From Heterodontus francisci (Eukaryota), in the NCBI RefSeq assembly GCF_036365525.1, contig NW_027142032.1, positions 434,001 through 498,000 on the forward strand: DNA of 64,000 bases. Reading direction: 5' to 3'. The position numbers and the translations under genes were made by a program. The notes beneath the pieces were generated by a model. The model searched no databases. It saw only the letters and a list, made by a program, of their open reading frames with translations, and was not told the origin of the DNA. Positions 21,619 to 64,000 of this stretch are shown one piece after another; position 1 is the first letter of the stretch, and every line of letters begins with the position of its first letter.

Positions 21619-21879
21619 GTATTTTCAATTCACAATTCCTAACCTTAGTCCAACCATCCATTCCATAAAGGAACTCCGACTCTTGCATCGACATTCTATT
21701 CCATGGTTCATTATTCCTGTACTTCTTTCCTGATTATAATGTAGCCTTTGTGGATATAGACCACACAAGCTTTCTCCAATTACTGTTCTCCATGCTCTGA
21801 CTGTTTCACACTCACCTCTATGTCTTCCCATCTTCCATCCCAGGAAGTTCAAAATATTCTTTAAGGCATTCCATTATAA

Positions 21880-29621: not shown

Positions 29622-29676
29622 ATTACCTCCAAAAACCATCAATATCCCTGGACCTTCCAGATAGAGTATTTGTGAA
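29622..29676 (+). pseudogene. Ig exon B, 5' half (cut by a transposon)
   Basis: YLQKPSISLDLPDRVFV is an Ig A-strand motif paralogous to the start of exon A. It ends at ATTTGTGAA where the transposon begins and continues in frame into 63368-63110 (-). Confidence 0.75.
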
Positions 29677-30707
29677 CAAAGTGATTCCTGACAACGCTGG
29701 CCAGCGCCGACGTCATCAGGCTGTGCCACGGTGCGCAGATGCGCAGACGGACTCCTGCACTCTGCGCATCCGCTGTGTTCCGGCTTGTCAGGACCCGTTT
29801 GCGCATGCGCTGGTGGCGTCATCGCGTTACGTTGTCTTCCTCGGACAACGGGCCAGGTTGGACTCTGCGCATGCGCTTCATGCAACGCCACCGGATATTC
29901 ACGCATGCGTCAATCTTCCGATATTCATGCATACGGAGCTGGAGGGAAAGGCTGAATGGAGAGGGCCGAATGGGAGAGGCCGTAGAGAGCCGCGGGGAGC
30001 GAGCGGCCGAAGACCTTGGTGTCGCCGGGTGCAGGGACTGGCCGCTAAGTCTTTTGCTGTTGTGTTTATGGCGCATGCACAGAAACGGGCATTCCTCTTC
30101 CGCTCCGCTGCTCCCCCCCACTCTCTCCCCTCCCCCCCGCTCCCTCCCTCTCTCTCCCTCCCTCTCTCTCCCTCCCTCTCTCAGCTCTTCCCCCTCCCTC
30201 CCTCAGCTCACCCCCTCAGCTCTCCCCCTCCCTCCCCAGCTCTCCCCCTCCCTCCCTTAGCTCTCCCCCTCCATCCCTCTCTCTCTCCCTCCCTCAGCTC
30301 TCCCCCTCCCTCCCTCAGCTCTCCCCCTCAGCTCTCCCCCTTCCCTCCCACAGCTCTCCCCTTCCCTCCCTCAGCTCTCCCCCTCAATCCCTCAGCTCTC
30401 CCCCACTTCCCTCCCTCCCTCAGCTCTGTCCCACCCATCCCCAACCCTCGTCGCCGCCACTGCTATCCCCGCGCTGGTCTCCCCGCCCCCCGCGCTGCTC
30501 ACCCCGGCCCGCTCCACTATCTCACTCCGGCCATTGTTTGCTGCCACGTATTTGTTAGGTTGCCTCTGTGTGGTTCTTCGACCAGCGGCATCTTGAGTCC
30601 TGGCAGCTGCTACAGTCGCAAGCTGTGACGTTTTAGTGGCACATGCTGTATTTGCGCATGTGCCAAAACAGCGCTACCTACCGATAGCGTTGTCAACAAA
30701 TGCAGTC
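29677..30707 (+). mobile_element. Non-autonomous DNA transposon with subterminal inverted repeats (Zisupton- or MULE-like), copy 1
   Basis: TGACAACGCT (29689) and AGCGTTGTCA (30686) each lie about 12 nt inside the ends. CpG-rich, with repeated GCGCATGCGC-like palindromes and an internal C-rich minisatellite. A second inverted copy starts at 63369, and an 8-9 bp TSD is recoverable from the split exon. Confidence 0.8.
30110..30430 (+). repeat. C-rich minisatellite (ccctcagctctccccct)n inside the transposon
   Basis: Direct inspection; the complementary G-rich array is at 63650-63980. Confidence 0.9.
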
Positions 30708-32520
30708 CATTGAAATTGGCCTTCCCCCAATTCAGTACCTTTATTTCCGGCCCGTCTTTGTCCTTTTCCATAACTAACTTAAATCTTACTGAATTTTGGT
30801 CACTGTCACCTAAATGCACCCCACCGACACTTCTGCCATTTGTCCAGCTTCGTATCCGAGGATTAGGTCCACGACTGCCCCTTCTCTTGTAGGACTTTCT
30901 ACGTACTGGCTCAAAAAGCTCTCCTGGATGCATTTTAACAACTCTGCCCCCTTTAAGCCTTTTACACTAAAACTATACCATTAAATATTCAGAAAGTTGA
31001 AATCCCCTGCTATTATTACCATATTATTATTGCACATCTCTGAAATTTGCCTCCATATCTGCTCCTCTATCTCACCCTGAATGTTTGGAGGCCTGTAGTG
31101 CACCCGCAGCCAACTGATTGCCCCCTTTTTGTTTTTAACTTCTACCTATACGGCCTCATTTGAGGAACCTTCAATGATATCGTCCCTCCTTACTGCAGTA
31201 ATTGACTCCTTGATCAGCAGTGCAACACCACCTCCTCTTTTATCCCCTCACCTTTCACGCCTAAAGTTTCGATATCCTGGAATATTAAGCTGCCAATCCT
31301 GCCCCTTTCTCAACCCTGTCTCTGTGATAGCATCAATATCATAATGCCATGTGCAAATCAACGCGCTCTATTCATCTGCCTTGCTAGCAAAACTCCTTGC
31401 ATTGAAATAGATGTAATCCAGCCTTACACTTTTCCCTTGTGCCTTAACAGGTCGATATTTGTTCTGCCTTCCAGCCTGACTCGGTTCTCTTCTGTATATG
31501 ACGGTGCATCACCCCCTACTGTACCTCCAGTCTGTATCCCATTCACCTGCCAAATGAGTTTAACCGCTCCCACCCCCAACCCCCCACCCACCACTTCCGT
31601 CACAGCACTAGCAAACCTCCACGCAAAAATGTTGGTCCCGTTCTGGTTCAGGTGCGACCCGTCCATCTTTTTCTTGACCACCTTTGCCAGAAACAGATTC
31701 AGTGATCCAGGAAACTAAAGCTCTCCCTCCTGCACCATCTCTTCAGCCACGTATACGTCTGCTCTATCCTCCTATTCTAATACTCCCTAGCACCTGGCTC
31801 CGGGGGTAATTCAGCGATTGCAACCTTTGAGGTCCTGCTTTTGAATCTGCTACCTAGCTCCCTAAATTCTTGCTGCAGGGCCTCATGCCACTTTCTACCT
31901 ATGTCATTGATAGCAATGTGAACCTCTGACTGTTCACCCTCCTCCTTTAGAATGTCCTGCAGCCTCTCCATGACATCCTTGACCCTAGCATCAGGGAGGC
32001 AACATATCATCCTGGAATGAAGTTTGCGGCCACACAAACTCCTATCTGTACCCCTTGAGATAGAACCCCCATCACTGCAGCACTTCCACTCTTTTTTTCT
32101 TCCCTGCTGTGCAGAAGAGCCATCCGTGGTGCCACGATCTTGGTTATTGCTGCTTTCCCCTGGGAGGTCACGCCCCCCAAACAGTATCCAAAGCGGTAGC
32201 GGTTTGAGAGGGGGATGGCCACAGGGGACTCCTGCACTACCTGCCTGCGTCAACTACTCTTCCTGGTAGTCACCCATCCATTTTCTGCCTGTGCAGCCTT
32301 TAGCTGCGGTGTGACCACCTCACTAAACGTGCTATCCACGACGTCCTCAATATCGCAGATGCTCCACGGTGAATCCACCTGCAACTCCAGCTCAGTAATG
32401 CGGGTAGCAAGTAGCTGCAGCTGGATCTACTTCCTACACACATCGTCGTCAGGGACACTGGAAGCTTTTCCCACATAGTGCAAAAGGGAAATATTACGAG
32501 GCTGAGCTGTCCTGCCATGA
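30708..32520 (-). mobile_element. CR1 LINE 5' half (ORF1 zinc-finger/esterase plus ORF2 endonuclease), truncated at the transposon end
   Basis: ORF1 MAGQLSLV..CTMWE and the esterase-like RGTDRSLCGRK..RMICCLPDARVKDV..NDIGRK. ORF2 HLGDSDQNSVRFKLVMEKDK..LNWGKANFNG stops exactly at 30708. Confidence 0.9.
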
Positions 32521-32827
32521 CTTACCCTTAGATTAATTAGTTACTCCCTTAATTAAAAAGATACTAATTACACAAAGGGCCTTGTTGTATTCCAAACGTT
32601 ACCCACTACAATCTAAATTACACTAATTAAAAAACAAAACAAACAAGGGTATTACTCACTTGAAGTCTTTTTTCAAACAAAAAAAAAACACTTTCTCTTA
32701 CTTTTTTTAGCTCTTATAATTGACTAGCAGCTGTTACTTACCCAACCAATCACATTGCAGATTTCCAGGGATGTTACTGTAAGTCTTTTTTCCCCTCTTC
32801 TTTGGAGTCTCAGAGCGTGCCCAGAGA

Positions 32828-33450
32828 CACATATAAATAGCGGGGCTACAAGAGCAGGTCAGAGGCTGGGAATACTGCGATGAGTAACTCACCTCCTGAA
32901 TCCCCAAAGCCTCTCCACAATCTACAAGGCACAAGTCAGAAGTGTGACGAAATGCTCTCCACTTGCCTGGGTGGGTGCAGCTCCAACAACACGCAAGAGG
33001 CTCGACACCATCCAGGACAAAGCAGCCCGTTTGATTGGCACCCCATCGCCACCTTCAAAATGCACCCCCTCCACCACGAATACACAATGGCAGCAGTATG
33101 TTCCTTTTACAAGATGCACTGTAGCAATCACCGAGGATCCTTCAACAGCACCGCCCAAGCCTGCGACCTCTACCACCTAGAAGGGCTAGGACCGCAGATG
33201 TATGGAAACACCACCACCTGAAAGTTTCCCTCCAAGGCACACACCATTCTGATATGGAGCTATATCGGGCATTGCTTCACTGTCACTGGGTCAAAATGCA
33301 AGAACTCCCTTCCTGACAGCACTCTGGGTGTACCTACCCCACACAGACTGCTGCGGTTCAAGAAGGCAGCTCACCACCATCTTCTCAAGGGCAATTAGGG
33401 ATGGGCAAAAAATACTGGCCTCGTCAGCGACGCCCACATCCCATGAAATA
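32828..33450 (+). mobile_element. L2/CR1-clade LINE (second family) 3' fragment
   Basis: SPLAWVGAAPTTRKRLDTIQDKAARLIG and the family 3' tail. Confidence 0.9.
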
Positions 33451-34059
33451 ATAGGGAAAGTAAAGCAATAGGCCATTCGCTCCAACTAGTCAGTACCATT
33501 GTTTGCACTCCACACCAGTCTCTTCCCACACTTTACACCTCATGTCTGCTTTTTACCCAGTCCTTCCACTCCATTGTCTCTCAGGCAATCACCCAAGATC
33601 AACTGGAATGAAGCTAAACAACTTCCTTCAACCACTTTCTGTGGTTGTGTGTTCCTCCTAGAAAAAAGGAGGAATATGTTTCCAATGACATGTCCGTTTT
33701 AACCACATTTAGAAACTGTAACTCACTGACAAAAGAACTAGAAGTGAAATGTGGAGAATAGTTTGACTCAGAGTGATGTTATGATCTGGAACTGAAAAGC
33801 CGGTGGAATCACATTCCATAGGAAGTTTCAAAAGGTGATTGAAAATGTGCTGGAAAAGTATGCAGGGATATGGGCAAATAAAAAGGATGTTGGACTAAAT
33901 TTGACAACTCTTAGACAGAGCAGAGGCTGTGAGATTCAATGATTCTAATAAAATGAGTACTTCGAGACGTCCATTTCTACATAGTATCAATAATCCATGG
34001 CGAATACCAAGACATGCTCTTGGTATGACACAAAACTGAGCTTCAGGTTGTTCAACTAC

Positions 34060-34630
34060 ATGGAGCATCCCATTTATGGCTAAATGACACTGTCCCTGGA
34101 ACAGAAAGGAAAGGTGCTGGCTGAAGTGTGTGTAAAAACGCTATGAATATTTACAGGTCCCCACACGCGGCCACACAATGGGAATCGGAGCTCAATTCGG
34201 GAATAGATGGAAGCCTTAATGGTGGGAATTGTGACTGTAAAATATGGAGATTCAGTGAACACATTAGACAGCAACAACACTGTGTTTGTTGAAGGGCATT
34301 CGTCTCGGCCCACTCTGCAGATCTATATCTCAGAGATGTGCTCACATCTATCAGACTGAATGAGGAAGTGGAGTTAATATAGATTCCTAGATGTGGACAC
34401 TAACTGAATTAATTACCAGAAACGTTTACTTGTACAGACAGTACAACCACACGCTCACAAATATCATAAAGAGCCTTAAGTCGAATATAAATTGGAAAAG
34501 AGACTGCAAATTAAGCTAACAGTCTGAAAATCGCCAGTATTAAAGAGTGCAGTAATAGCAAGAAGGCATCATAGTGGAGGCAGCGGTTTCAACTGGAAGG
34601 CGCTTCAGTTTCAAGAAACAGGAAATGAGT
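34060..34630 (-). promoter_or_regulatory. Promoter plus leader module, copy 2, with candidate 36-nt mini-exon (34060-34095)
   Basis: The minus strand aligns with 21235-21700 (aactgaagcgccttccagttgaaaccgc; ccacttcctcattcagtc). ATG at 34299 gives MPFNKHSVVAV*. Downstream is acceptor tttcctttctgttccag, 36 nt, then gtagtt. Confidence 0.5.
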
Positions 34631-34869
34631 CACTGACAGTGACGCAGTGACTCAGAACCAACGGAGTCTGAAAATATATTCATTAGAATATCCACAGCCT
34701 TTGTAGCTAAATCTCTCCCCCTAATTTCTGTCTCCAAATCTCTTGAAAATGGTAATTCCCCAATGCCACCGCCCCCCCCACCCCCCTCCCACCACAGCCA
34801 CCATGAAGAAAAGCCCACCCCTCTATCTGATCATCTTTGAGTGCTGGTATTGTGTGAGTTAGATGTTTC

Positions 34870-37566: not shown

Positions 37567-37821
37567 CTTGACCTGACGTCAGCAGGTGCTAACTGGAACG
37601 TCAGCAATCCAACAGGCTCACATGTCCTCCTGATAAAATGCACCATCCTCCAAATCATGTACATTGGCAAAATTGAACAGTGGGTTATAAAGCTGACATA
37701 TCAGCATTTACTTCAACTTATCCAACAAGGAATTCAGGAGACAATTCTTCAAAGAGTGGTCAGAAAGTGGAACATAATAGAACATGTGACATGAAGGCAG
37801 ATTAGAAATACAATAAAAATT

Positions 37822-40445: not shown

Positions 40446-40797
40446 TTCAGACTGATGTTAGTGACATCAAATGCTTAAACTTGCATAAACACTTAACCTC
40501 AGACAAATAGGAAATTAGCCCCTAACAGTAAGAACAGTGCATGTGAACCAAGAGTATGTTTAAACAGATAACATTAAAATGTACTGTGACAATCTTTCTT
40601 TCATTTTTTTTTCAACCGAAGCTCATAGTAATGAATTCCGAAGGCCACCACAATTAGAGAAATAACAAATCTTACTCCCAGGCAATTATTTACTGATAAT
40701 ATTGCATTCAAATAATTTGAGATAGGTAGAAATATTTAATATTCCATCTGATTGATTTTAAACCATAAAGAAGTAGACTTATTTAGGAAACCGTGTC

Positions 40798-42710
40798 AAG
40801 AACAAACAAAGAACAAAGAACAGTACAGCACAGGAACAGGCCATTCGGCGCTCCAAGCCTGCGCCGATCTTGATGCCTGCCGAAACTAACACCTTCTGCA
40901 CTTCCGGGTCCCATATCCCGCTATTCCCTTCTTATTCAAATATTTGTCAATATGTCTCTTAAACGTCGCTATCGTACCTGCTTGCAGCACCTCCCCGGCA
41001 TCAAGTTCCAGGCACTCACCACCCTCTGTGTAAAAATCTTCCTCGCACATCCCCTCTAAACTTTGCCCCTTGCACCGGAAACCTATGTCTCCTAGTAACT
41101 GACTCTTCCACCCTGGGAAAAAAGCTTCTGACTATCCACTCTGTCCATGCCGCTCATAACTTTATAAACCTCTATCATGTCGCCCCTCCACCTCCGTCGA
41201 TCCAGTACAAACAATCCGAGTTTTTCCAACCTCTCCTCATAGCTAATGCCCTCCAGACCAGGCAACATCCCGGTAAACCTCATCTGTACCCTCTCCAGAG
41301 CCTCCACGTCCTTCTGGTAGTGTGGCGACCATAATTGAATGCGATATTCTAAGTGTGGCCTAACTAAGATTCTGTACAGCTGCAACATGACTTGCCAATT
41401 TTTATACTCGGTGCCCCAACTGATGAAGGCAAGCATGCCGTATGCCTTCTTGACTACCTTATCCACCTGCGTTGCCACTTTCAGTGACCTGTGGACCTGT
41501 CCAACCAGATCTCTCTGCCTGTCAATACTCCTAAGGGTTCTGCCATTTCCTGTATACTTCCCACCTGCATTAGATCTTCCAAAATGCATTACCTCACATT
41601 TGTCCGGATTAAACTCCATCTGCCATTTCTCTGCCCAAGTCTCCAACTGATCTATATCCTGCTGTATCCTCTGACAATCCTCATCACTATCTGCAACTCC
41701 ACTCACCTTTGTGTCGTCCGCAAACCTACCAATCAGACCAGCTAGATTTTCCTCCAAATCATTTATATATACTACAAAGAGCAAAGTTCCCAGCACTGAT
41801 CCCTGCGGAACACCACTAGTCACATCCCTCCATTCAGAAAAATACCCATCCACTGTTTCCCTCTGTTTTCTGTGACTGAGCCAGTTTGTATCCATCTTGC
41901 CAGCTCACCTCTCATCCCGTGTGACTTCACCTTTTGCACCAGTCTGCCATGCGGGACCTTGTCAAAGGCTTTACTAAAGTCCATATAGACAACATCCACC
42001 GCACATCCCTCATCAATCATCTTCGTCACTTCCTCAAAAAACTCAATCAAATTATTAAGACACGACCTCCCTTCACAAAACCATGTTGTCTCTCGCTAAT
42101 AAGTTCGTTTGTTTCCAAATGGGAGTAAATCCTGTCCCGAAGAACCCTCTCCAATAGTTTCCCTACCACTGACGTAAGGCTCACCGGCTTATAATTTCCT
42201 GGATTATCCTTGCCACCCTTCCTATCAAAGGAACAACATTGGCTATTCTCCAGTCCTCTGGGACCTCACCTGTTGCCAATGAGGATGCAAAGATTTCTGT
42301 CAAGGCCCCAGCAATTTCTTCCCTTGCCTCCCTCGGTATTCTATGGTCGATCCCATCGGACCCTGGGGACTTATCTACCTTAATGCTTTGCAACACACCC
42401 AACACGTCTTCCTTTTTGACAATGAGATGACTGAGACTATCTGCACTCCCTTCGCTAGGCTGATCATCCACCAAGTCCTTCTCCTTGGTGAATACTGATG
42501 CAAAGTAATCATTTAGCACCTCGCCCATTTCCTCTGACTCCACGCATAGCTTCCCATCTCTGTCCTTGAGTGGGCCAACCCTTTCCATGGTTACCCTCTT
42601 GCTCTTTATGTATGCATAAAAAGCCTTGGGATTTTCCTTAATCCTGTTTGCCTATGACTTTTCATGACCCTTTTTAGCCCTCCTAACTCCTTTCTTAAGT
42701 TCCTTCCTGA
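40798..42710 (-). mobile_element. CR1 LINE, 5'-truncated
   Basis: 267-aa RT frame ([21 protein letters not shown]) and (ttctttg)n tail. Confidence 0.95.
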
Positions 42711-42765
42711 GAGATTGGATAATGCATACAAACCGCACTGCAGTTTGAACAGAGGAGGGCAGTGC

Positions 42766-43165
42766 CTGAGCGGATTAAGATACATTTTGAGAACAAAGGC
42801 AGCAACAGCACTGAGCTTATTTAAGGACATTCGTACACCCCACTCTGCTGATCTATGTCTCAGTGAAATTCTCAACCCTAGCAGGCTGAATGAGGATGTG
42901 GCATTAACATAAATTCCTAGATCTGAAATCCGCCTGAATTATTCACCAGAAGGGTTTTGTTGTTGCAGACAGTACACGCAGGCATTCACAAATATGACCA
43001 AGCACCAGAAATTCGGATGCAACATGGAAAATGAAATGATAAATAAGCAACCAAGTGGAAAATGCTCAGCACTGAACAGAACAGTAACAGCAGTTCGGTG
43101 TTATAAAAAAGGGCTGTGGTTTCCACTTGTAGGAGAGTTAGTACAAAGAAAGAGGAACTTAGCGT
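42766..43165 (-). promoter_or_regulatory. Promoter plus leader module, copy 3
   Basis: ATG at 42830 gives MSLNKLSAVAAFVLKMYLNPL. RUNX-like TGTGGTTT at 43115 and ETS-like AGAGGAAC at 43151 have the same spacing as in copy 1. Confidence 0.55.
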
Positions 43166-44413
43166 CCAGCAGAAAGGGCAGTGCCAGTGCAAAATATCTC
43201 AATATATATTTACTGGAATATCCACTGACTACGTATATTTTCCCAATGGATGCCGAACATTGCATGCTGCATTTTTTATAGAAAAGATTTACAGAATCTT
43301 GCAGCACAGAAGCAGGCCACCCACCCGTTGTGCCCATGCTGGTTCCTTGAAACAGCTGTCCAATATGCTCCTACATCCCAACGTAATCCCCATTAACCAG
43401 ACAAATCAGTTCCCTTCAAGTTCAAATCCAGTTGTCTTTTCAAAGTCCTGATGGAATCTGCTTCCACCATTTCTTTAGGTCGTACATTCCAGACCGCACT
43501 AGCACTCAGTGTGAGAATGATTCTTCTCATTTCACCTCCAGTTCTTTTCCAAATACATTAAATAGTTGACTCGTGGTTACTGAGCAACATGTAACTGGAA
43601 CGACCTAATAATTATGAATATCTCTGTTCGATCTCTCCTTAGCCTCCTCTGTTCTACCGAGAACAAATCCCGTTTCTATAGATCCCCCAAAGTAACTGAA
43701 GTGTTTCATCTCTGGTACCAATCACAGGTCGAACAATATTTAACTCAACGCATCTGGAAAATCTCAAAGCCCATCAACTTAAATGGTGCATCACCCGACA
43801 CAATGAGACACAAATAACACTGTTTGACTTCCATTGCTCCATCCTATCCAACATTCACCTCACAAGTACGGGGACATCTTGATATTCTCATGGAATATCA
43901 AATTTCATTCTGGGAGGTCTTTAATCGCCCTCTATTCCGCCATGTTATTCACTCTTCATAAACTGGACTAGTAATCCAGAGGCTGATGATGATGAGCCTT
44001 GAATTCATAATCCGACCTGGGCAGCTGTGGCCATTTATTCTCAATGAATAAATAAACATGGAACAATAATGATTTAAAAATCTACATCAGTAATGGTGAC
44101 GCTGAACATGCCAGCTTATAATTTCAACCCATATGGTTCACTAATGTCTTTCGGGGAAGGAGAACTGCCGTCCTTACTTGATAATTGGATACAAAATTAG
44201 CTTGGTGATCGGTAGTGGAGGGTTGTTTTTCAGATTGGGGCTGGTGGCCAGTGTTGTGCCGTGGGGGTCAGTGATTGGCCCTCTGTTGTTTGTCATATAT
44301 ATTAATGACTTGGATGTGAATGTAGGGGGCATGATTAGTAAGTTTTCAGATTACACCAAAATTGGTGGTAGACAGTGAAGAAGGTTGTTTAAGGTATCAA
44401 CAGGATACAGATC

Positions 44414-44415
<2 letters not shown>

Positions 44416-44460
<45 letters not shown>
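44416..44460. repeat. (CT)n microsatellite
   Basis: Direct inspection. Confidence 0.95.
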
Positions 44461-44463
<3 letters not shown>

Positions 44464-44656
44464 CCCAATCAACTTAAATCGCACATCATCCAAAAATAAT
44501 CATACACAGATAAAACTGATTTGCTTCCATTGCTCCATCCTATCTAACATTCAACTCACAAGTATGGGAACATTAAATATCATTCTGGGAGATCATTAAT
44601 CGCCCTCTATTCCGCCGGGTTATTCACTCTTCATAAACAAGACTAATAATCCAGAG

Positions 44657-44755
44657 ATAAAAACAAGAAATGCTGGAACCACTCAGCAGGTCTGGCAGCA
44701 TCTGTGAAAAGAGAAGCAGAGTTAACGTTTCGGGTCACTGACCCTTCTTCGGAAC
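44657..44755 (-). mobile_element. Penelope-like element 3' terminal fragment
   Basis: Near-exact reverse complement of 55092-55190. Confidence 0.85.
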
Positions 44756-44956
44756 GTTTCTGCTAATTGAAGGCAGATTTGAAATACAATGTTAATTAGA
44801 AAGGAAATGGAAGATATTTCATACTGTTGATAGCAGTGACATTATTTCACTAATAATGTTGTATTCAACCAATTTAAAAGTGATAGAGATAGTTACTACT
44901 TCATCTAATTGATTTTTAAACATAAACCACACTAGTTTTACACGGGATGACAGTAC

Positions 44957-45405
44957 CTGAGGGGGTTGAGAGATAAATTGTGAGCACAAAGGCAGCTGCA
45001 GCACTGTGTTTATTGAAGGATATTTGACTCCACACCCACCCACCCACCCCCACCACCGCACCCCCCACCCGCACCCCTCACCCCACACTGCAGATCTATG
45101 TCTCAGTAAAATGCTGAACTCGAAAAGGCTGAATGAGGAAGTGGAATGAATATCAATTCCGACATCTGAAAGCTGCGTGATATATTCACCAGCAGGATTT
45201 AGTTGTTGCAGACAATGCAGACACACGCTCAGAAATGTGACAAAGTGCCTGAAATTCGGATGTACGAGGGGAAAAGGAATGACAAATAAGCAAACAAGCG
45301 GTAATGGTCAGCACTGAACAGAAAAGTAACAGCAGTTAGGTGTTATAAAGAAAGGTTTTGGTTTCCACTTGTAGAAGAATTAGTTCAAAGAAAGAGGGAC
45401 TTAGT
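44957..45405 (-). promoter_or_regulatory. Promoter plus leader module, copy 4
   Basis: Start mutated (ATA at 45023), then SFNKHSAAAAFVLTIYLSTPS with phase-1 donor g|gtactg. Upstream CACTTCCTC is present. Tandem paralog of 42.7-43.9 kb. Confidence 0.55.
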
Positions 45406-46090
45406 GTCGAGCAGAAAGGGCAGTTTCACCATACAAAATATCTAAATATATATTTACTAGAATATCCACTGACTATATATTTTCCCAATGGATGTCGAGC
45501 ATTGCATGCTGCATTTATTTATAGAATAGATTTACAGAATCTTACAGCACAGAAGGATTCACACTTCTTCCACATGCTTGCTCCTTGAAACAGCTTCCCA
45601 ATATCCTCCCACATCCCAGCTTCATTCCCATAGCCATATAAATCAGTCCCTTTCAAGAACATATCCAGTTGCCTTTTCAAAGTCCTGATGGAATCTGCTT
45701 GCACCATTCATTCAGGTAGTACATCCCAAATCACACTAACCATCAATATGAGAATAGTTCTGCTTATTTCCCCTCTAGTTCTTCTACCAATATTTTAAAT
45801 CGTTGACCATTGGTCAGTGACCCACTTTTGATTGGAAGCAGTTTATCTCTGTTTTCTCCAACACACGCCCTAGTAATTGTGAATAGCTCAGTTAGGTCTC
45901 TCCTTAGCCTCCGCTGCTCTACAGAGAACAGACCCAGTTTCTATACTCTCCCAAAGTAACTGAAGTATTTCATCTCTGGTACCAATCAAAACATCGGCAA
46001 TCACCGATGGAACAGTATTTAACTCAACTTAATGCCTCTGGGAAACCTCAAATCCCATCAACTTAAATCATGCATCATACAAAATAATCA

Positions 46091-46426
46091 GCCACAGTGG
46101 CACAATGGTTAGCACCGCAGCTTCACAGCTCCAGCGACCCAGGTTCAAATCTGGGTACTGCCTGTGTGGAGTTTGCAAGTTCTCCCTGTGTCTGTGTGGG
46201 TTTTCTCCGGGTGTTCCGGTTTCCTCCCACATGCCAAAGACTTGCAGTTTGATAGGCAAATTGGCCATTATAAATTGCCCCTAGTACAGGTAGATGGTAG
46301 GGAAAAAAGGGTAGGTGGGGATGTGGTAGGAATATGGAATTAGTGTGGGATTAGTATAAATGAGTGTTTGATTGTCGGCACAGACTCGAAGGGCCTGTTT
46401 CAGTGCTGTATCTCTAAATAAATAAA
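46091..46426 (+). mobile_element. V-SINE (HE1-like)
   Basis: Head, V core and CR1-like tail as in the other copies. Confidence 0.92.
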
Positions 46427-48149
46427 ACTGTTTTACTTCCATTGTTCCTTCCCATTCCTCTCCTGAGAGGCAAATTCCCCTGGAAGTTAGTTCTAAGGAC
46501 AGCGACTCTCTGCCTTGTCTTGATCAGAATGGACAGTTGCAGTGTTTGAGCTCAGACACTGTTTGTCTGTGAACAGTCTGATTAAAGAAGGCGAAAACAT
46601 AGTCCCTAACAGTATCCTCAGCGGACATCCATTCACCAACACTTTACAATAGGGCCACCAGGTCACTATGAGCAGTGGCCACTATCTCTGCTTCTTGCCC
46701 TGACCTCAATCACTCCGCTTTCCTGAAAACTCATCCCACTCTCACTCCCTCATCGTTACTCACTGAGAATTGAGCACAGTCAAGCATCTGCTCCAATAGC
46801 TTTCCACTTTCGACTGCTGCACACCAAACTAGCTCTGGAGTTCATCGACTGAGCTACTGGAGATTGGACACCTCAGTCCCACTCTCCCACTGCCATCTGC
46901 CCACTCAGCTACTTCACAGATCCGAAATCCAGTCACATTGGTATAAAATTGTATCACCACTCACCAAATAGCAGTGTTATGGCGGCTCTGTCCATTTTCT
47001 AATGGTAGCTGCTTCGAGAGATAAGGGCTGTAAGCAACCACCACTGAGTCTCTTTCGACAGCTCACAGAATTTGAAACCATAAAGCTTTGAATGGGAGTG
47101 GATGCAGAGGCTGGGAGGAAATGAAGTGGTCGTCCCAGTTAAAGCCACAACACTGAGTTATGCACAATAGTGAGTAAGATAGTGATGTGAACATTACAAG
47201 ATCCAAAATGAAAGTCTTTGAATATTAGGCAATGATGACAGGATGAAGGAGCTGGAATAGACTCCGCACTCAGAACAACACAGAAGCAAATGTATGTTTG
47301 GTTGGGACCTTGCTTTCATCGTGGTTCGGAGTCTCATATTGGGAAGACCCTATCCCCACTTCGTGTCAACATAATACACTCAAAGGGCATGAGCAAGACA
47401 ACAAAATGCAGCACAGCAAAATCGCACACAGAGCGCCCCATCCTGTATCAATCATTGCTTTGCTGTAGTCAATGTGCACGGCGATGTTTCATGTGATCCC
47501 CATATTGACCCGGATGACTGTTGGTAATAATTATTTGAGCTCGACAATCTTCCTCCAACACCATCACATCGATCCTGAGCAATGAAGCCAGGAACTAATC
47601 TCATGATACGAAAGTACTGTGTTCCACCTCTCCTCAGTAGAACCGAACTGGATGAAATCTTCTAGCCTTTGATGAAATGTTCGACACAGTTAATGATAGT
47701 GTAGAAACGCGTCATGTTCATTTGGAACATTTGAATTAAGTTCGAGATGAGAATCTGTACAGATATGTTCCTTTCCATCTCCTTTTTAAACTCAAGTGCC
47801 TTGTGTATCAATGTCAGCAATTGACTGGGAGCTCATATTCCCCGAAGAGAAGGGACGTAGGGTGGAATTGAATAAATGCAGTTATAACCCTCACTCAAAA
47901 TCAGAGGCAATTTAATCAAGAACCAAAATCTCCCTGTTAGATCAGGAACTTCACCGAGTGTGAAGCTTAAGTAATAATCACAAAACCCAGAAACATTTGC
48001 AAAAATGGCTGAGTTTAATACTTAATCCATTTTATTTTCAGTGAAGAATCTGTCAGTGCCTTGACTGGAAGTTAAAATGAACTGTTCCAATTAACTGAAC
48101 TGAACCTGATACATTGTGTGTCTCGTTACCTGTCCATCAGCAACAAAGT

Positions 48150-50232: not shown

Positions 50233-50387
50233 NNNNNNNNNNNNNNNNNNNNNNNNNNNNNNNNNNNNNNNNNNNNNNNNNNNNNNNNNNNNNNNNNNNN
50301 NNNNNNNNNNNNNNNNNNNNNNNNNNNNNNNNNNNNNNNNNNNNNNNNNNNNNNNNNNNNNNNNNNNNNNNNNNNNNNNNNNNNNNN
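50233..50387. other. Assembly gap (N run)
   Basis: Run of 155 N. Confidence 1.
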
Positions 50388-53313: not shown

Positions 53314-53669
53314 TTTTTTTTAGATTAGAGATACAGCACTGAAACAGGCCCTTCGGCCCACCGAGTCTGTGCCGAACATCAACCACCCATTTATACTAAT
53401 CCTACACTAATCCCATATTCCAACCAAACATCCCCACCTGTCCCTATATTTCCCTACCACCTACCTATACTAGTGACAATTTATCATGGCCAATTAACCT
53501 ATCAACCTGCAAGTCTTTTGGCTTGTAGGAGGAAACCGGAGCACCCGGAGAAAACCCACGCAGACACAGGGAGAACTTGCAAACTCCACACAGGCAGTAC
53601 CCGGAATCGAACCCGGGTCCCTGGAGCTGTGAGGCTGCGGTGCTAACCACTGCGCCACTGTGCCGCCCC
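53314..53669 (-). mobile_element. V-SINE (HE1-like), well preserved
   Basis: Complete head with A/B boxes (tggcgcagtgg; ggttcgattcc), V core, tail and terminal A run. Confidence 0.95.
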
Positions 53670-53711
53670 TTTTTAGCAATATTGATTCCACCTCCAGTTA
53701 ATATATCATGT

Positions 53712-53803
53712 TTAATCTATTCCCAGGATAACTGCAGTCTCAAAGAGGATGAAAGCGGAGAGACACAGACGATTTGGGATTGAATTGGATTTTAAAGAGA
53801 AAC
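53712..53803 (-). pseudogene. Candidate transmembrane exon of the Ig receptor (Arg-containing TM)
   Basis: Strong acceptor ttctgttccttctatattcttccag, then phase-1 GFSLKSNSIPNRLCLSAFILFETAVILGID*. Same strand and phase as the upstream Ig exons. Confidence 0.45.
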
Positions 53804-54210
53804 CTGGAAGAATATAGAAGGAACAGAATGTTAATGTGAATTTTCTCATACTTCCACCGCAATGACTAATAGAGACTTTTTCGGAAATCCTTTATAACAT
53901 TCAACGCACAAAGACAGGAATACCCTGATATTCGGAGGGAACATGAATGATCATTTTTTGGCAGATCTTTAATCTCCCTCTATTTCTCGTTGTCATTCAC
54001 TCTGCACAAACTGGAGTAATAATCCGGAAGCCTGTAACCAATGGTCCAGAGATATGAACTCATAACCCTCCAGAGAAGCTGTGAGAATTTAAATTCAATG
54101 ACTACATAAACCTGGAATAAAAATGTTTGTATCAGTAATGGGGATGGTGAAAATACCAGCTTGTAATAAAAGCCCATCTAGTTAACTGATGTTAGTGAGG
54201 GAATGAAAAC

Positions 54211-55228
54211 AGCATTCCGAAGGGATCGTTCCCTCCGCGACACCCTGGACCACTCCTCCATTACCCCCACCACCTCGTCCCCGTCCCAGGGCACCTTCCC
54301 CTGCAATCGCAGGAGGTGTAATACCTGCCCATTTACCTCCTCTCTCCTCACTATCCCAGGCCCCAAACACTCCTTTCAGGTGAAGCAGCGATTTACTTGT
54401 ACTTCTTTCAATGTAGTATACTGTATTCGCTGCTCACAGTGTGGTCTCCTCTACATTGGGGAGACCAAGCGCAGACTGGGTGACCGCTTTGCGGAACATC
54501 TCCGCTCAGTCCGCATGCAGGACCCTGAGCTTCCGGTTGCTTGCCATTTCAACACTCCCCCCTGCTCTCATGCTCACATCTCTGTCCTGGGATTGCTGCA
54601 GTGTTCCAGTGAACATCAACGCAAGATCCAGGAACAGCATCTCATCTACCGATTAGGCACACTACAGCCTGCAGGACTGAACATTGAGTTCAATAATTTC
54701 AGAGCATGACAGCCCCCCATTGTACTTTCATTTTTAGTCATTTTTAGTTATTTTTTCTTCCTTTTTTTTACATTCCTTTTTACATTTTTTACAATTTGTT
54801 TTGCATTAATTTCATTTCATCTTAGTTTGTTCAGTTTGCTTACCCACTGTTTTTTTTCAGGTTGTTTTTCTTCAGGTTTGCACTTGCTGCTGTTCAATAT
54901 TCAGTGTATTCACACCTAATCTGTACTAATGCTTTGTCTTTCAACACACCATTAACATATTGTTTGCCTTTGCTCCGTGACCTTTTGGTCAGCTATGTGG
55001 CCTGGTCCAATCTGCACCTTCTCCTTTGTTATCTCTTGCCCAACCCCCACCTCACTTGTTTATAATCTGTGACTTTTCTAATATTTGTCAGTTCCGAAGA
55101 AGGGTCACTGACCCGAAACGTTAACTCTGCTTCTCTTTCCACAGATGCTGCCAGACCTGCTGAGTGATTCCAGCATTTCTTGTTTTTGTTTCAGATTTCC
55201 AGCAGCCGCAGTATTTTGCTTCTATTTT
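54211..55228 (+). mobile_element. Penelope-like element 3' portion with open GIY-YIG endonuclease frame, inserted in a SINE
   Basis: ORF to 54709 reads CNRRRCNTC...VVYCIRCSQCGLLYIGETKRRLGDRFAEH...GLNIEF. Flanked by direct repeats AATGAAAAC (54202-54210 and 55229-55237). Confidence 0.92.
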
Positions 55229-56704
55229 AATGAAAACTGCCAACCTGGCTTGGTCTGGCCGACATGTGCCACGGTTCCAGAACAATGACTTTGACTCTCA
55301 ACTACCCTCCTAAATGGCCAAGCAAGTCACTCAGTGATGGACAATAAATGCTGGTTTTGTCAACGAGGCTCATCACACCCCACAATTTAAATTAAAATAG
55401 CGAGAGCGAGGCAGCTCACAAAATCTCCATTTTGTTGGTGGTAAAATCAAATTTGTATCACAGTGACAACACCGCCTTCATAGATTCCATGTTCAATGGA
55501 TAACTACGATCTTATTTGATGGAAATTGCTCCCATAAATATTTGGACAACAAATATAAGATTTACTGCACAAACAATTTCTCAAAATTTAAATAGTTTCA
55601 GGGAGAGGGCAGTTGACTGACTCCTACATTTAACAACAATTTAATACCTGCCTCTCAACGAAATTAGCAAGTAATTGACAACACATACTACAGTCTAGAG
55701 TGCTAATGGGAAAATGTAATAACCGAATGAGAGTAGTTCCTTCAATTCTGTAACACATCACATCATTGAATGTGGCTTATATTCTCTGCCTTGGTTCTTA
55801 AATGTAAGTATCCCAAATGCCTTCCTTACCACCTTATCACCCTGTGCAGCTGCCTTCAGTGATCTATGGACATGTACACCAAGATCCCTCTGACCCTCTG
55901 TACTTCCTCGGGTCCTACCATCCATTGCATATTTCCTTGCCCTTTTAGTCCTCCCAAAATTAAACCTTACGTTTCTCAGGATTAAATTCCATTAATTTTC
56001 ATTTGTTATTTGGGGTGATGTATAAGTATAGGAAGGAAGCACATTCATGTTAAAACAAAAGACACATGCTGGCGTAAATTTAGCCAAATGCACAATGCGG
56101 AAACAGGATGAGATCCGGTCGGCCGCCCATTTTACGCCCGACCCAATTTTCTGCTGACTATCAGTTGCTGCCTACAATGGGCGGCTGAGCTAAAAGCTCC
56201 CTTTTTGTGGCACCACCAGAGAAGGCTTTCGAGCCCAGAAGGTCCCTGAATTACATCACTACTCAGTGGGTCTCTCAGATGTGGAATACAGCATTCCTTC
56301 AGTACTGACTTATAATAGCAGTTGTAACAATCACAAGTTTAAACTCGATTAAAGTCAATGGAGGGTAAAATCTGATGGCGATGAAACTGGACACAGAGCA
56401 GAATTCACCTCGTTCCTGTTTGAAGGGTTTGGTTAAGATCTCTGCCCAGACTGTGATCTCATGTTCCTCGTCGGGTATCAATTCACAGAATTCCAGCGCA
56501 ATGCAGTACACATTTTAACAATACCCTATAATGGGCGTTAATTACTATGATACTGTTTTAAATGTCAGAGAATATTCCATTCCAATGCCTTTGATGGGAA
56601 ATAATGGAACAGGACGTAGAACAGTCGACTGATTCACCTTCAACCTCCTCTGCCTCCTCCTGCAGTCACCAGCATAACAGATGCCAGTCTTCAGCCAATC
56701 CTAT

Positions 56705-59257: not shown

Positions 59258-59260
59258 ATT

Positions 59261-59606
59261 GGTGGCACAGTAGCGCAGTCGTTAGCACCACAGCCTCACA
59301 GCTCCAGCGACCTGGGTTCAAATCTGGGTACTGCCTGTGTGGAGTTTGCAAGTTCTCCCTGTGTCTGCGTGGGTTTTCTCCGGGTGCTCCGGTTTCCTCC
59401 CACAAGCCAAATGACTTGCAGGTTGGTAGGTAAATTGGCCATTATAAATTGCCCCTAGTATAGGTAGCTGGCAAGGAAATATAGGGACAGGTTGGGATGT
59501 GGTAGGAATATGGGATTAGTGTAGGATTAGTATAAATGGGTGGTTGATGGTCAGCACACACTCGGTGGGCCGAAGGGCCTGTTTCAGTGCTGTATCTCTA
59601 AACTAA
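59261..59606 (+). mobile_element. V-SINE (HE1-like)
   Basis: Head, V core and tail. Confidence 0.93.
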
Positions 59607-59620
59607 ATTCTGTCATATTA

Positions 59621-61058
59621 CTCACGTGATACCAAGAAACGTCTGAAAGCACTGTTTACTGCAAAAGCTATGGGCCCTAACAACATTCTAGCAATATTAC
59701 TGAAGACCTGTGCTCCAGATCTAGCCTCACCTCTAGCCAAACAGTTGAAGTACCACGAAAACACTGTCATCGACCTGCAAATGTAGAAAATCGTCCAGGG
59801 ATGCCCTGTGCACAAAAAGCAGGACAAATCCAATCTGGCCAATTACATCCCCATCAGTCAACTCTAAATGATCAGTGAAGTGTTGGAAGCTGCCATTAAC
59901 AGTGCTATCAAGCAGCATTTGCTTAGCAAGAACCTATTCTGTGACGCTCAGTTAGGGTTCCGCCAGGACCACCCAGCTCCTCACATCATTACCGCCTTGG
60001 TTCAAACATGAACACACGATATTAACTCAAGGGGCGAGGTGCGAGAGACTGCCCTTGACATCAAGGCAGCATTTGACTGAGTATGAGGGTGCGGTTATTG
60101 GAGGTCAATCATCTCAGCTCCAGGAAATCACTGCAGGGTTTCCTCAGGGTAGTACCCTGGTCCCAACCATCTTCAGCTGCTTCATCAATGACCTTCCTTC
60201 AATCATAAGGACAGAAGTAGGGATGTCAGCTGATGATTGCACAATGGTCAACACCAGTCACGACTACTCAAATGCTGAAGCAGCCCATGTCCATATGCAG
60301 CAAGACCTGGACAACAATCAGTCTTGGTGTGACAAGTGGCAAGTAACATTCGCGCCACACAAGTGCCAGGCAATGGCCATCTCCATAAAAAGGGAATCTA
60401 ACCATCTCCCCTTGACATTCAATGGCATTGCAATCACTGAATCGCCCTCCACCAACATCTTGGGGTTAAGCATTGACCTGCAACTGAACTGCACCAGCCA
60501 TATTAATACCATGGCGAGGAATCCTGCTGCAACTAACTCATCCCTGACTGCTCAAAGCCTATGCACCATCTACAATGCACAAGTCAGGAGTGTGATGGAG
60601 ACTCTCCACTTGCTTGGATGGGTGCAGCTCCAGAAACATTCAAGGAGCTCGATACCATCCAGGACAAAGCAGAACGCTTGATTGGCTCCCCATCCACAAT
60701 CGTTCACTCCCTCCCCCACCGACGCACTATAGCAACACACCAAGAGTCCTTCGACAGCATGTTCCAAACACACAACCTCCAGCAGCCAGAAGGACAAGGG
60801 CAGCAGATGCAAGGGAACACAAACAGCTCCAAGTTCCCCTCCAAGGTGCACACCATCCTGACCTGGAACTATATCATCGATCGTTCACTGTCGCTGGGTC
60901 AAAATTCTGGAACTCCCTTCCGAACAGCACTGTGCATGTATGTGCCCCACATGACTGCAGCAGTTTGAGAAGGAAACGCACCACCACCTTCTCAAGGGCA
61001 GTAAGGGAAGAGCAATAAATGCTGGTCTAACCAATGATGCCCACATCCCATCAATGAA
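59621..61058 (+). mobile_element. L2/CR1-clade LINE (second family) RT and 3' end, degenerate
   Basis: GFPQGSTLVPTIFSCFINDLP..MSADDCT, WCDKWQVTFAPHKC and the family tail. Confidence 0.9.
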
Positions 61059-61315
61059 TACAAAATCAGTTTTCTCTGGTTCCCGGGATGCATTTCCCCC
61101 CTCAAACCCTTATCAGCTGTAGATTGCCATCGGTTGAATTTAGACCCAATGTGACAGGGCTCAGATCGAAAGTTAAGCTTTGAGTTAAAAAAAAAAAACT
61201 TCCACTGTATTGTTCTCACTTCATATTAAACCATTGATTGTGTTACAGTGAATGCAGCATGACTTTTGGAAAATATTAACATCTTTGAGAAAGGTTATCG
61301 ATTCTCTTTACTCAC

Positions 61316-61590
61316 CTGTTATAGTCACCCTCACAGCCTCGCTGAGTTGGGATACTAACCGCTTTCCATTGATGGATGTTTCGTATTTGTATTGGTACTG
61401 CCCTCGGAGATACATTCAGCAAACTCTGAGTTCCACAGGTTGCCCTTGGTGATGACAGCATTCGGCTCTTTCTGTAAAAGTGGAACGTTCTTTGGTGATA
61501 ATCTCGGGTCATGATGCAGGTAGTGCTCCTCTCCTGTTACATACACCCCAGTCCGTTGATTAAGAGATATCACAGGCATTGTTTGCGGAT
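61316..61590 (-). pseudogene. Ig exon C (paralog of exon A), frameshifted
   Basis: Acceptor tttgctacag, then DPQTMPVISLNQRTGVYVTGE/TTCIMTRDYHQRTFHFYRK/VITKGN/GQYQYKYETSINGKRLVSQLSEAVRVTIT, ending at g|gtgag. Phase 1 at both ends. Confidence 0.8.
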
Positions 61591-62399
61591 CTGTAGCAAA
61601 ATAAAATGAAAGAAGAGTAACAAATGGATGTTTGAATTTTCAAGTACAGTACATATTGATAAAACAATACCGAGTGCACTGCATTGAAGGGAAGTGGGCT
61701 GAGATTCAACAGAAGGAGTTTTCAAGATTTGTTACAAATGAAACGAAAAAACAGAGTTTGCATTTCTGTAGCTCATCCCATGAACTCAGAAGGTCCCAAA
61801 GCACTTTACAGCTAAGTTAGGTAGTTAGGTTGTTAGGTCATGAATTTTAAGATTTTGATCTATCAGCGATGATGCTAGAATGATACATATCTAATTCAGG
61901 ACGGTGTGTGACTTGGAGGGGAACGTTAAGGTGATGGTGTTCCTCTGCATCTGCTGCCCTTGCCCTTCTTGGTGTTGGAGGTCGCGTGTTTTGGAGGTGC
62001 TGCTAAAATGCAATCTCCTGAGATACATGGAAACACCCCAATGTAATGACATTAAAATATTGGGCTTTGCGAGATAATTTTGAAAATCTCGGTCTACAGA
62101 TTCCCTTCGCTAACAGAGGAACCTGTGGTCGGATCAGGGCACACAGAATGGAGGTGACTCTTGAAATAACACTGCACAAAGAGGGATTTAATCCCTGTTG
62201 CCGTGTTGTCAGTGTGAACCTAAATGTTGATAATTCAGACATGTCGGGGTAAAATTGGTCTTGGACCAATTTGGAGCGGATTGTAATAATTCGGTTTTAC
62301 ATTCCTATTTCAATTGTAAACACAGTCAGGTGGTGTCTAAGACGGGCAGCAGAATCATTACCCCCCACTTTGCAATAGACTTAGCAGACATTTCAGCAT

Positions 62400-63045
62400 C
62401 GGATATTGTCAGAGCAAACAATTAAGAAGGTAGAGGGTATGTTGTAATTTGGTTCAACGGGATTGGAGTACAAGAATAAAGGAATCGTACTGCAATTTTA
62501 CAGGGCATTTCAGAGGCACACCTGGATTACCGCGTGCAGTCTTGGACTATTTACTTAAGAAGGGATAGACCTGTCCTACAGGGTGGGCGATGAAGGTCCA
62601 CTAGACTGGCTGATGGGTGAGGAGATTGTCCAATGTGAAGAGATTGAGTCGACTAGACAGGAGTTTAGGATAAGAAGAGGCGATCTCCCTGAAACTGAAA
62701 TGTCTTAAGCTGCTGCACATTATAGGTGCTGAGGGAATGTTTACCCAGGCTGGAGAATCTAGACAAAGTGTCACAGTCACAAAATACATGATCAGCCATT
62801 CCACAGTGAGATGAGGAACACTTTCGTCACCCAGAGTGTTGTGAATCTTTGTAATTCTCTACCCCAGAGGTTTGTGGATGGTTAGTCATTGACTATATTC
62901 AAACAGAGGTCGATAGATTTTTGGGTACTGAGGGAATTAAGGGATATGGGCAGAGTGTGGGAAGGTGGAGTTGAGTAGAAGATCAGCCATGCGCAAATTG
63001 AATGACAGAGCAAGCTGGAAGCACCGAAGAACCTCCTCCTGCTCC
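62400..63045 (+). mobile_element. Old CR1 LINE 3' remnant
   Basis: cacctggattaccgcgtgcagtcttgg and gagatgaggaacactttcgtcacccagagtgttgtgaatct. Confidence 0.75.
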
Positions 63046-63109
63046 AATACGTATGTTTTTATGTTCAACAATGTCCTATGTTATTAGCGTGAAAGATATT
63101 GAACCTCAC

Positions 63110-63368
63110 CCGCAACCGGTAACTTCACGGTATCGCTTAGATCTGAGATGATCTCCCTTCTGACACTGTCTTTCTGTAAACACAGCAGTAATCTACTGAC
63201 CCGGGAGACACCAGGTCTGTGATGTCAAAGATAACCCAATATGCAGATAGATTGGCTGTGCCTGTTCTGATTAGCTCTTTTTGGCTTCCTATGTACAAAG
63301 AGAATCTGCTTCCTGAATCTGAAGACGTTGCTTCACAGGTAAACCTGACTGACTCTCCTTTCACAAAT
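63110..63368 (-). pseudogene. Ig exon B, 3' half
   Basis: FVKGESVRFTCEATSSDSGSRFSLYIG...VIFDITDLVSPGSVDYCCVYRKTVSEG/IISDLSDTVKLPVA, ending at g|gtgag, with one frameshift. Begins with ATTTGTGAA directly after the transposon end. Confidence 0.82.
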
Positions 63369-64000
63369 GACTGCATTTGTTGACAACGCTATCGGTAGGT
63401 AGCGCTGTTTTGGCACATGCGCAAATACAGCATGTGCCACTAAAACGTCACAGCTTGCGACTGTAGCAGCTGCCAGGACTAAAGATGCCGCTGGTCAAAG
63501 AACCACACAGAGGCAACCTAACAAATCCGTGGCAGCATACAATGGCCGGAGTGAGATAGTGGAGCGGGCCGGGGTGAGCAGCGCGAGGGGCGGGGAGACC
63601 AGCGCGGGGATAGCAGCGGCGGTGACGAGGGTTGGTATATGGGTGGGACAGAGCTGAGGGAGGGAGTGAAGTGGGGGAGAGCTGAGGGAGGGAGGGGGAG
63701 AGCTGAGGGAGGGAAGGGGAGAGCTGAAGGAGGGAAGGGGGAGAGCTGAGGGGGAGAGCTGAGGGAGGGAGGGGGAGAGCTGAGGGAGGGAGAGAGAGAG
63801 GGAGGGAGAGAGAGAGGGAGGGAGGGGGAGAGCTGAGGGAGGGAGGGGGAGAGCTGAGGGAGGGAGGGGCAGAGCTGGGGGGGTGAGCTGAGGGAGGGAG
63901 CGGGAAGAGCTGAGAGAGGGAGAGAGAGAGGGAGGGAGAGAGAGGGAGGGAGCGGGGGAGGGGAGAGAATGGGGGGGAGCAGCGGAGCGGAAGAGGAATG
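63369..64000 (-). mobile_element. Non-autonomous DNA transposon, copy 2 (inverted; runs off the window)
   Basis: Reverse complement of 30090-30707. The terminal ~110 nt are identical, there are roughly ten differences over the next ~180 nt, and the minisatellite units differ. Confidence 0.9.

Follow-up and report, generated by a model that had tools for sequence, protein, structure and literature searches.

Two opposed copies of a small transposable element flank a candidate 33-kb inversion at a shark Ig-like receptor locus

The window, the whole stretch of DNA analysed here, comprises 64,000 nt of Heterodontus francisci (contig NW_027142032.1, positions 434,001 to 498,000 of the forward strand). 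Gene 1 begins with a promoter-proximal region and leader exon 1 (20627..21164, + strand; coding 21114-21144, with a phase-1 donor). In a six-frame scan this exon is the top match for the leader of the shark protein P0002, and the region as a whole gives a 66% DNA match to 47466-46945, the equivalent promoter-proximal stretch of a paralogous gene 2 (46945..47466, - strand), which includes that gene's leader exon 1 (coding 46965-46995). Just downstream of leader 1 lies a conserved non-coding module with no convincing reading frame (21201..21682, +), and three further copies of it are found on the - strand (34182..34705, 42780..43235 and 45077..45479), inside the interval that separates the two transposable element copies discussed below. 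The first-pass annotation had counted three leader modules in that interval; what is there is a single leader exon (46965-46995, -) together with the three non-coding copies, and a reading of the modules themselves as leader exons is unsupported.

Ig exon A (28169..28462, +) has two premature stops and has lost its donor GT. It matches Pfam Ig_3 (E 1.4e-6) and is identical to domain 2 of P0003 at 48 of 99 positions. Its paralog, Ig exon C (61316..61590, -), carries two frameshifts between intact splice sites. Exon B is in two pieces: a 5' half (29625..29676, +), whose expected acceptor lacks AG, and a 3' half (63110..63368, -) with an intact donor and one frameshift near its end. A decayed TM-like exon (53692..53803, -), assigned with moderate confidence, retains an acceptor and contains two stops; among six-frame matches to the TM segment of P0005 it ranks best, scoring 50 with the runner-up at 32, and it is not the top match for the TM segments of P0002-P0004. 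Lesions beyond the split are thus present in all four Ig and TM exons. (The Pfam scan covered 242 of 369 stop-to-stop frames of at least 60 aa, mostly LINE-overlapping and low-complexity frames being omitted; it detected a single Ig exon, a single 7TM frame and LINE domains, plus a weak match to GIY-YIG.) Positions 10196-11218 hold an open receptor frame of 341 codons; exact look-up of this ORF in the protein collection, starting at 10196 or at 10214, retrieved neither form.

FcRL/LRC-type receptors have a signal peptide split over two exons and, in activating forms, a TM segment with an NxxR motif (PMC2413239). The Ig exons of gene 1 are of this type, each encoding a single domain in phase 1. 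The 31-nt first leader exon is present, and six-frame scans of the window found no second leader exon, no Ig domain of first or last type and no cytoplasmic exon; the TM-like exon has an Arg at the start of its hydrophobic stretch, the exact NxxR motif being absent. Shark proteins called FcRL5-like and IGSF1-like (P0002-P0005, from Mustelus, Pristiophorus and Heptranchias; the names are automatic source labels and not functional assignments) resemble the gene in their Ig domain types and leader, P0003 in its A-B-A' order and P0005 in its TM segment. They differ from the gene in the window, none of whose Ig and TM exons is undamaged and for which the scans found neither a second leader exon nor a first-type domain. 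Gene 1 is a multiply broken FcRL/IGSF1-like shark pseudogene.

The death of gene 1 probably predates the divergence of the element copies from one another. In a simple neutral simulation, which leaves frameshifts and splice-site losses uncounted and takes two of its four stops from the less certain TM exon, four stops in ~335 codons have a probability of 0.006 at a divergence of 0.016, and of 0.07 at 0.033. This stop count disfavors insertion of the element as the event that killed gene 1, and no effect of the rearrangement on that gene is to be expected, since it was probably already dead.

The element is present as two copies in head-on orientation: copy 1 (29677..30707, +; 1,031 bp) is non-coding and CpG-rich, and copy 2 runs inverted from 63369 to the window end (63369..64000, -), which cuts off ~413 bp of it. 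Between them lies the candidate inverted interval, 30708-63368 (~33 kb). Copy 1 contains an internal pyrimidine minisatellite (30111-30449) and a 10-bp subterminal inverted repeat (29689-29698 and 30686-30695) that starts 12 nt in from each end; the ends themselves form no terminal inverted repeats, their first 12 nt being mismatched. A Pfam scan of five frames situated entirely or largely within the unique left part of copy 1 gave no match, and the window contains no third full copy. The CpG observed/expected ratio of the element is 0.87-1.06, against 0.43 for the window.

The sequence a (29668-29676, +), a 9-mer that directly precedes copy 1 and ends the 5' half of exon B, matches 63368-63360 (-) at 9 of 9 positions; there it starts the 3' half, so that it lies beyond opposite ends of the two copies. 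(The first-pass annotation had placed the copies and this 9-mer correctly.) An exact match at one given position has p ~6.6e-6; on both strands of the window the 9-mer occurs three times, the third at 42985 within a non-coding module. The same annotation had described swapped target-site duplications. Exchange of site a is directly visible, making one of two; the candidate 9-mer b on the LINE side has a single visible copy (30708-30716), and its exchanged counterpart would be expected ~413 bp beyond the window.

Comparison with intact homologous proteins shows that a single Ig exon has been divided between the two flanks. Placed in fixed register against P0003, the 5' half scores at a level reached by only 2 of 127,900 16-mers in the window, itself included. 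When the exon is rejoined with 0, 1 or 2 copies of the 9-mer, the scores are 152, 168 and 155 against P0003, and 165, 193 and 183 against P0020 (probably a chondrichthyan protein, judging by its 56% identity to the exon), and the join is gapless against these homologs only with one copy. (The 3' half gave 43 matches in an exhaustive protein search; in a word-index search of longer proteins, 0 of 35 candidates passed.) It is this alignment that discriminates, and not the seamless reading frame to which weight had earlier been attached: 9 bp are three codons, so 0, 1 or 2 copies all remain in frame, and that argument is dropped.

The far side of copy 1 abuts, as previously noted, a CR1-type LINE on the - strand (30708..32830), with a 5' region, a decayed ORF1 and the endonuclease part of ORF2, which ends abruptly at the element. 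Three paralogous LINEs align with its last 493 bp (61-65%), and the two whose alignments come as close as 8 bp or less to the junction continue beyond it. The LINE looks cut by a break, since it keeps its 5' end and stops in mid-ORF2; the usual truncation of LINEs shows the opposite pattern, loss of the 5' and not of the 3' end.

Re-inverting 30708-63368 places A, B and C on one strand and in that order, ~1.2 and 1.5 kb apart. The domains of P0003 run A-type, B-type, A-type, and in P0020 a B domain is followed by one of A-type; the ancestral A-B-C gene order is known in this indirect way, through the domain order of homologs. Relative to such a gene, an inversion of 30708-63368 with breaks within the two element copies is supported by the homologous domain order, the gapless junction and the 3'-cut LINE. 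The exon-side breakpoint shows neither deletion nor duplication (it is gapless against P0003 and P0020); the LINE-side breakpoint is compared on one side only. Strand orientation had also been offered as independent evidence. Exon C is on the - strand and A on the + strand; the TM-like exon has no counterpart in the window outside the interval. In favor of the inversion, leader 2 and the three modules are on the - strand inside the interval and their counterparts on the + strand outside it. The module copies, being duplicates of one another, do not count as separate indicators of orientation. At the breakpoints, GC skew was uninformative.

As the sequence on the far side of copy 2 falls outside the window, an inverted duplication is also to be considered: copy 2 would be situated within a complete exon B of a - strand gene continuing past the window, and the + strand block of leader, A and B 5' half would be a partial duplicate ending in the element. 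Other local duplications do exist in the cluster (for example 42836-43812 with 45079-46096, 77.5%). We nevertheless consider this very unlikely, as it requires an extra event to cut the LINE exactly at the end of copy 1, and the two halves of B share nothing but the 9-mer. C is in any case not a simple mirror duplicate of A, because the neighboring B half comes before C but after A.

On balance, the inversion was probably made by ectopic recombination between two element insertions, the best of the mechanisms considered and the one that the first-pass annotation had proposed. A tandem cluster of shark Ig-like receptor genes would have received two independent insertions of one small non-autonomous element, in opposite orientation and ~33 kb apart. 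One of them would have hit exon B of gene 1, by then in decay, and the other an old CR1 LINE on the downstream side of the gene 2 leader. A same-chromatid crossover between the copies would then have flipped everything between them, with the consequence that each copy would now bear one target site from each insertion.

Divergence between the copies bears on this. Copy 1 (30090-30707) and copy 2 (64000-63369) are 93.4% identical over 636 columns including indels; 20 of 614 ungapped columns are substituted (3.3%), which fits two separate insertions. By contrast, in an aberrant transposition (hybrid element insertion) a single element would have inserted, and its sister-chromatid ends would jointly have attacked a site 33 kb away, yielding in one step an inversion that has the element on both sides and its target sites swapped. 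According to PMC2775673, the outcome differs little from that of ectopic recombination, apart from the two copies being identical when they form. A local partner site, as found here, would be expected of such events, but the substitutions and indels would then all have to be later decay. A long decay of identical copies is poorly supported, because CpG remains high and CpG sites hold no significant excess of the differences (3/42 against 6/236, p 0.14; a weak test). Aberrant transposition is accordingly a doubtful explanation.

That an assembly error would yield the same sequence was recognized at the outset, and we agree: two ordinary, un-inverted insertions would have been crossed over by an assembler or scaffolder within the inverted repeat. 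Two features could have invited this. The inner-end 112 bp are identical in both copies, with 10 differences in the preceding 166 columns; such a run has a probability of 0.19 anywhere and 0.01 at the terminus (a boundary picked post hoc), and fits a conversion tract or terminal constraint, but a collapsed repeat as well. Within the interval there is also a run of 155 N (50233..50387), non-round in length, which suggests a scaffolded assembly, though it could also be masking. Against a mis-join, the assembly separates the two copies, each with its own substitutions and minisatellite length, and both junctions are free of gaps. Long reads or mate pairs readily bridge a repeat of ~1 kb at ~95% identity, and base accuracy looks good, since the 341-codon receptor frame is open. 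Among the human and chimpanzee inversions reported in PMC2603318, one locus was dropped as an assembly error, against 33 verified by PCR. We regard a mis-join as unlikely, if a real concern, and infer that the arrangement is present in the animal.

Inversion by recombination between two insertions would here be a well-documented mechanism acting on a pseudogene, and the locus is a tidy example rather than a source of new understanding of such inversions. If real, it shows cleanly and at base level how a pair of transposons has reshaped an Ig-receptor cluster of a cartilaginous fish, with a break that can be reconstructed from one sequence; if artefactual, it marks a local mis-join by which annotation of the cluster would be misled. 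The points of value are the element family and the fate of gene 2, whose leader now faces away from whatever followed it. It is rather improbable, but would be of greater consequence, that the element represents an unclassified young shark DNA-transposon family (9-bp site, subterminal repeats only) and that a real, perhaps polymorphic inversion has severed the promoter and leader of a functional gene 2 from Ig exons past the window. A transposon would then have created a null allele within a shark paired-receptor cluster, and one step in the birth-and-death evolution of a little-described family of immune genes would be directly visible. A search of literature titles, from which no absence from print is claimed, found none on this locus or on a comparable shark inversion.

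By its described features the element fits none of the superfamilies with which it was compared. Its target site is likely 9 bp rather than 8 bp (judged from one site, 8 bp being possible but less likely), and with 9 bp the subterminal repeats become symmetric. MuDR/MULE elements have a 9-bp target site and terminal inverted repeats, although members devoid of these exist; the 9 bp agree, with 8 bp also possible from one site, and the terminal repeats are missing from the shark element. Zisupton has an 8-bp target site and terminal inverted repeats (PMC12730594), and is rejected on the latter count, an 8-bp site being the less likely one. Kyakuja has a 7-bp target site, CA..TG ends and no terminal inverted repeats (PMC12730594); the shark element starts with CA but ends with TC, and its target site is 8-9 bp. 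Dada transposons (PMC3706591) lack terminal inverted repeats, have short subterminal ones and insert into small RNA genes, where their target sites are 6-7 bp long. The shark element shares the first two properties (its 10-bp repeats lie 12 nt inward), but its 9- (or 8-) bp site is in an Ig exon and a LINE, not in a small RNA gene; an Rfam scan of the window gave 0 matches.

As to the rearrangement, inversion 2z3 of Drosophila buzzatii (PMC2775673) has oppositely oriented copies of Galileo at its breakpoints and exchanged target sites. The shark locus likewise has opposed copies at the breakpoints, an exchanged target site and no loss of sequence at the testable junction. It differs in host (shark, not Drosophila), in scale (33 kb, against a cytological inversion) and in that its element lacks the long terminal inverted repeats of Galileo; the comparison here covers one target-site pair. 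Closer in scale are the Alu/L1 recombination-mediated inversions of human and chimpanzee, 166-81,189 bp in length, some of which invert exons and whose ancestral state was inferred from mismatched target sites (PMC2603318). The shark element is neither Alu nor L1, and one breakpoint element lies within a pseudogene exon; otherwise, the candidate shark inversion is like these cases in being vertebrate, local, within their size range, and in having mismatched target sites that point to the ancestral state.

The element is present as two oppositely oriented copies, a 1,031-bp copy 1 (29677-30707, +) and a copy 2 that begins at 63369 on the - strand. Over their overlap the two are 93.4% identical (636 columns), with 20 substitutions in 614 ungapped columns (3.3%). 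The 9-mer on the left of copy 1 (29668-29676) recurs exactly at 63368-63360 on the minus strand, just outside the opposite end of copy 2, and the sequence on the right of copy 1 is LINE, differing from that left flank. (An exact 9-mer match at one given position has a chance of 6.6e-6; the window holds three occurrences of this 9-mer.) Coordinates and matches bear out what the first-pass annotation described, an element, its inverted copy and a shared 9-mer. It also claimed swapped target-site duplications: one swap is visible, and the second is not because copy 2 extends ~413 bp beyond the window end.

That Ig exon B is split between 29625-29676 (+) and 63110-63368 (-) had been argued from the restored reading frame, a weak argument since 9 bp is three codons; the split is settled instead by homologous proteins. 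A search with exon A (28169-28462, +) gave four matches among six candidates, all shark proteins that their sources name FcRL5-like or IGSF1-like, from which the window is taken to be shark DNA (receptor anatomy is treated in the excerpted part of PMC2413239). One such shark protein, P0003 of Pristiophorus, has consecutive A-type, B-type and A-type domains, and joined exon B aligns with its third domain gaplessly only if the 9-mer is retained once (scores of 152, 168 and 155 with 0, 1 and 2 copies). The outcome is the same (165, 193 and 183) with P0020, an unnamed protein, 56% identical, that was a new match among the 43 from an exhaustive search with the exon B 3' half and was chosen for a second join test; in P0020 an A-type domain directly follows B. 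The score of the 16-residue 5' half in fixed register is reached by 2 of 127,900 16-mers of the window, itself included. Re-inversion of 30708-63368 brings A, B and C (61316-61590, now -) onto the same strand, ordered like domains 2-4 of P0003 and spaced by ~1.2 and ~1.5 kb. The likeness of A and C runs into their introns (27929-28574 vs 61824-61214, 64%), so they would be products of an old exon duplication within this gene (gene 1).

At the inner junction of copy 1, a LINE (30708-32830, -), presumably of CR1 type, stops where the element begins; it retains its 5' region, ORF1 in decayed form and, of ORF2, the endonuclease part. Of three paralogous LINEs that can be aligned with its last 493 bp, the two whose alignment comes within 8 bp of the junction continue beyond it. 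LINEs are usually truncated at the 5' end, so the absence of the 3' part speaks for a break at this junction. (Pfam matches on the paralogous copies are to endonuclease and RT domains only.) Homolog order, gapless join and cut LINE together make the proposed inversion of 30708-63368, with the A-B-C gene rearranged and its breaks inside the two elements, well supported. That the arrangement is instead an inverted duplication is very improbable. Two further LINEs, ~62% identical, are arranged tail to tail (34.9-37.6 kb, +; 37.8-40.4 kb, -); a third (40.8-42.7 kb, -) is 76% identical to the latter, and a 3' fragment (12918-13281, 86% identical to 40803-41160) is nested in a LINE at 12581-13578.

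The 31-nt leader exon of gene 1 (21114-21144, +) and a non-coding module at 21201-21682 (+) lie outside the interval; the paralogous leader of gene 2 (46965-46995) and three module copies lie inside it, all minus. The strand contrast drawn earlier stands for leader and modules, except that the inside modules, being duplicates of one another, are not independent markers; nor are they leader exons, although three promoter/leader modules had been proposed. Two of them are borne by an old local tandem duplication (42730-43981 / 44457-46096, ~77%). A decayed TM-like exon (53692-53803, -) is the site that best matches the TM of the shark protein P0005 (score 50, next site 32), but three further TMs used as queries do not have their best match there. 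With the inversion undone, two tandem genes result: leader 1, A, B, C and TM, then leader 2 with modules, then the LINE. A joint reading in which gene 2 was live and lost its head to the distal break, and the element represents an undescribed family, is doubtful.

A SINE-like family of ~340 bp (46093-46430, 53314-53667, 59261-59608, 2107-2353) shows 87-92% identity among three full copies, the 53.3-kb copy being on the strand opposite to the 46- and 59-kb copies. Near 55091-55187 lies a short repeat with 97% identity to 44659-44755. The frame at 54182-54706 (+) has a weak GIY-YIG match (E 4e-4) and is possibly a Penelope-like element. An open rhodopsin-family 7TM frame (10196-11221, +; Pfam 7tm_1, E 8e-18; weak PDB matches to GPR15, CCKBR and GPR139) probably represents a second exon whose acceptor lies near 10318, and we take it to resemble a shark GPR139-like expansion. 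The stretch at 16861-16962 (+), presumably like the histone H2B C-terminus, has no Pfam match.

Gene 1 is dead: exon A has two stops and lacks a GT donor, B lacks an acceptor and has one frameshift, and two frameshifts disrupt C and two stops the TM-like exon. Simple neutral simulation gives four stops in ~335 codons (two of them in the less certain TM exon) a probability of 0.006 for a divergence of 0.016 and of 0.07 for one of 0.033. CpG o/e is 0.87-1.06 in the element, 0.43 in the window and 0.44 in the LINE. With wide error, these figures suggest an element younger than the decay, so that neither insertion nor inversion probably killed the gene.

Copies 1 and 2 are identical over 112 bp at their inner ends (30596-30707 / 63369-63480); the preceding 166 columns hold 10 differences. 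(Such a run has a chance of 0.19 anywhere and 0.01 at the terminus, for a boundary picked post hoc.) A conversion tract or terminal constraint may lie behind the run, as may a collapsed repeat at an assembly seam, which would fit a mis-join. A 155-N run inside the interval (50233-50387), flanked by short degenerate GATA-like repeats, likewise hints at scaffolding from short reads, and could be masking. Each copy is, however, resolved with its own variants, neither junction has a gap and a 341-codon frame elsewhere in the window is open, and a mis-join is unlikely.

The element has no terminal inverted repeats, and contains an internal pyrimidine minisatellite; its left part (29677-30090) is 61% GC with CpG o/e 1.06 and several short palindromes. 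Pfam gives no match in the frames scanned. With a 9-bp target site, each end carries, 12 nt inward, one arm of a perfect 10-bp inverted repeat, a symmetry that favours 9 over 8. We take a 9-bp target to suggest MuDR. From target site and ends we infer a DNA transposon. As regards superfamily, the comparison is with published descriptions, as excerpted from PMC3706591, PMC12730594 and PMC4455052. Subterminal repeats are common to the element and Dada (PMC3706591), from which it differs in target length and type, and its ends do not fit Zisupton or Kyakuja (PMC12730594); it is left unclassified.

Among the titles listed by literature searches, none concerns this locus. Ectopic recombination between the two copies, which would generate the inversion, is the rather probable mechanism; the event would be a further inversion by a known TE mechanism, located in a pseudogene. 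Hybrid element insertion, an aberrant transposition, differs in the excerpt of PMC2775673 only by leaving identical copies, and is quite unlikely here: the 3.3% difference between still CpG-rich copies favours two insertions, on a weak test (differences at 3/42 CpG vs 6/236 elsewhere, p 0.14). In the parts of the respective sources at hand, TE-mediated ectopic recombination is treated as general across vertebrates, though the events analysed are insertions and deletions (PMC13320814), and human and chimpanzee differ by 49 inversions of this kind, 166-81,189 bp in size, 33 verified by PCR and one locus removed as an assembly error (PMC2603318). The marks of ectopic recombination given in the excerpt of PMC2775673 are opposite orientation, exchanged target sites and chimeric copies; here the copies are oppositely oriented, and half of the target-site exchange is seen.
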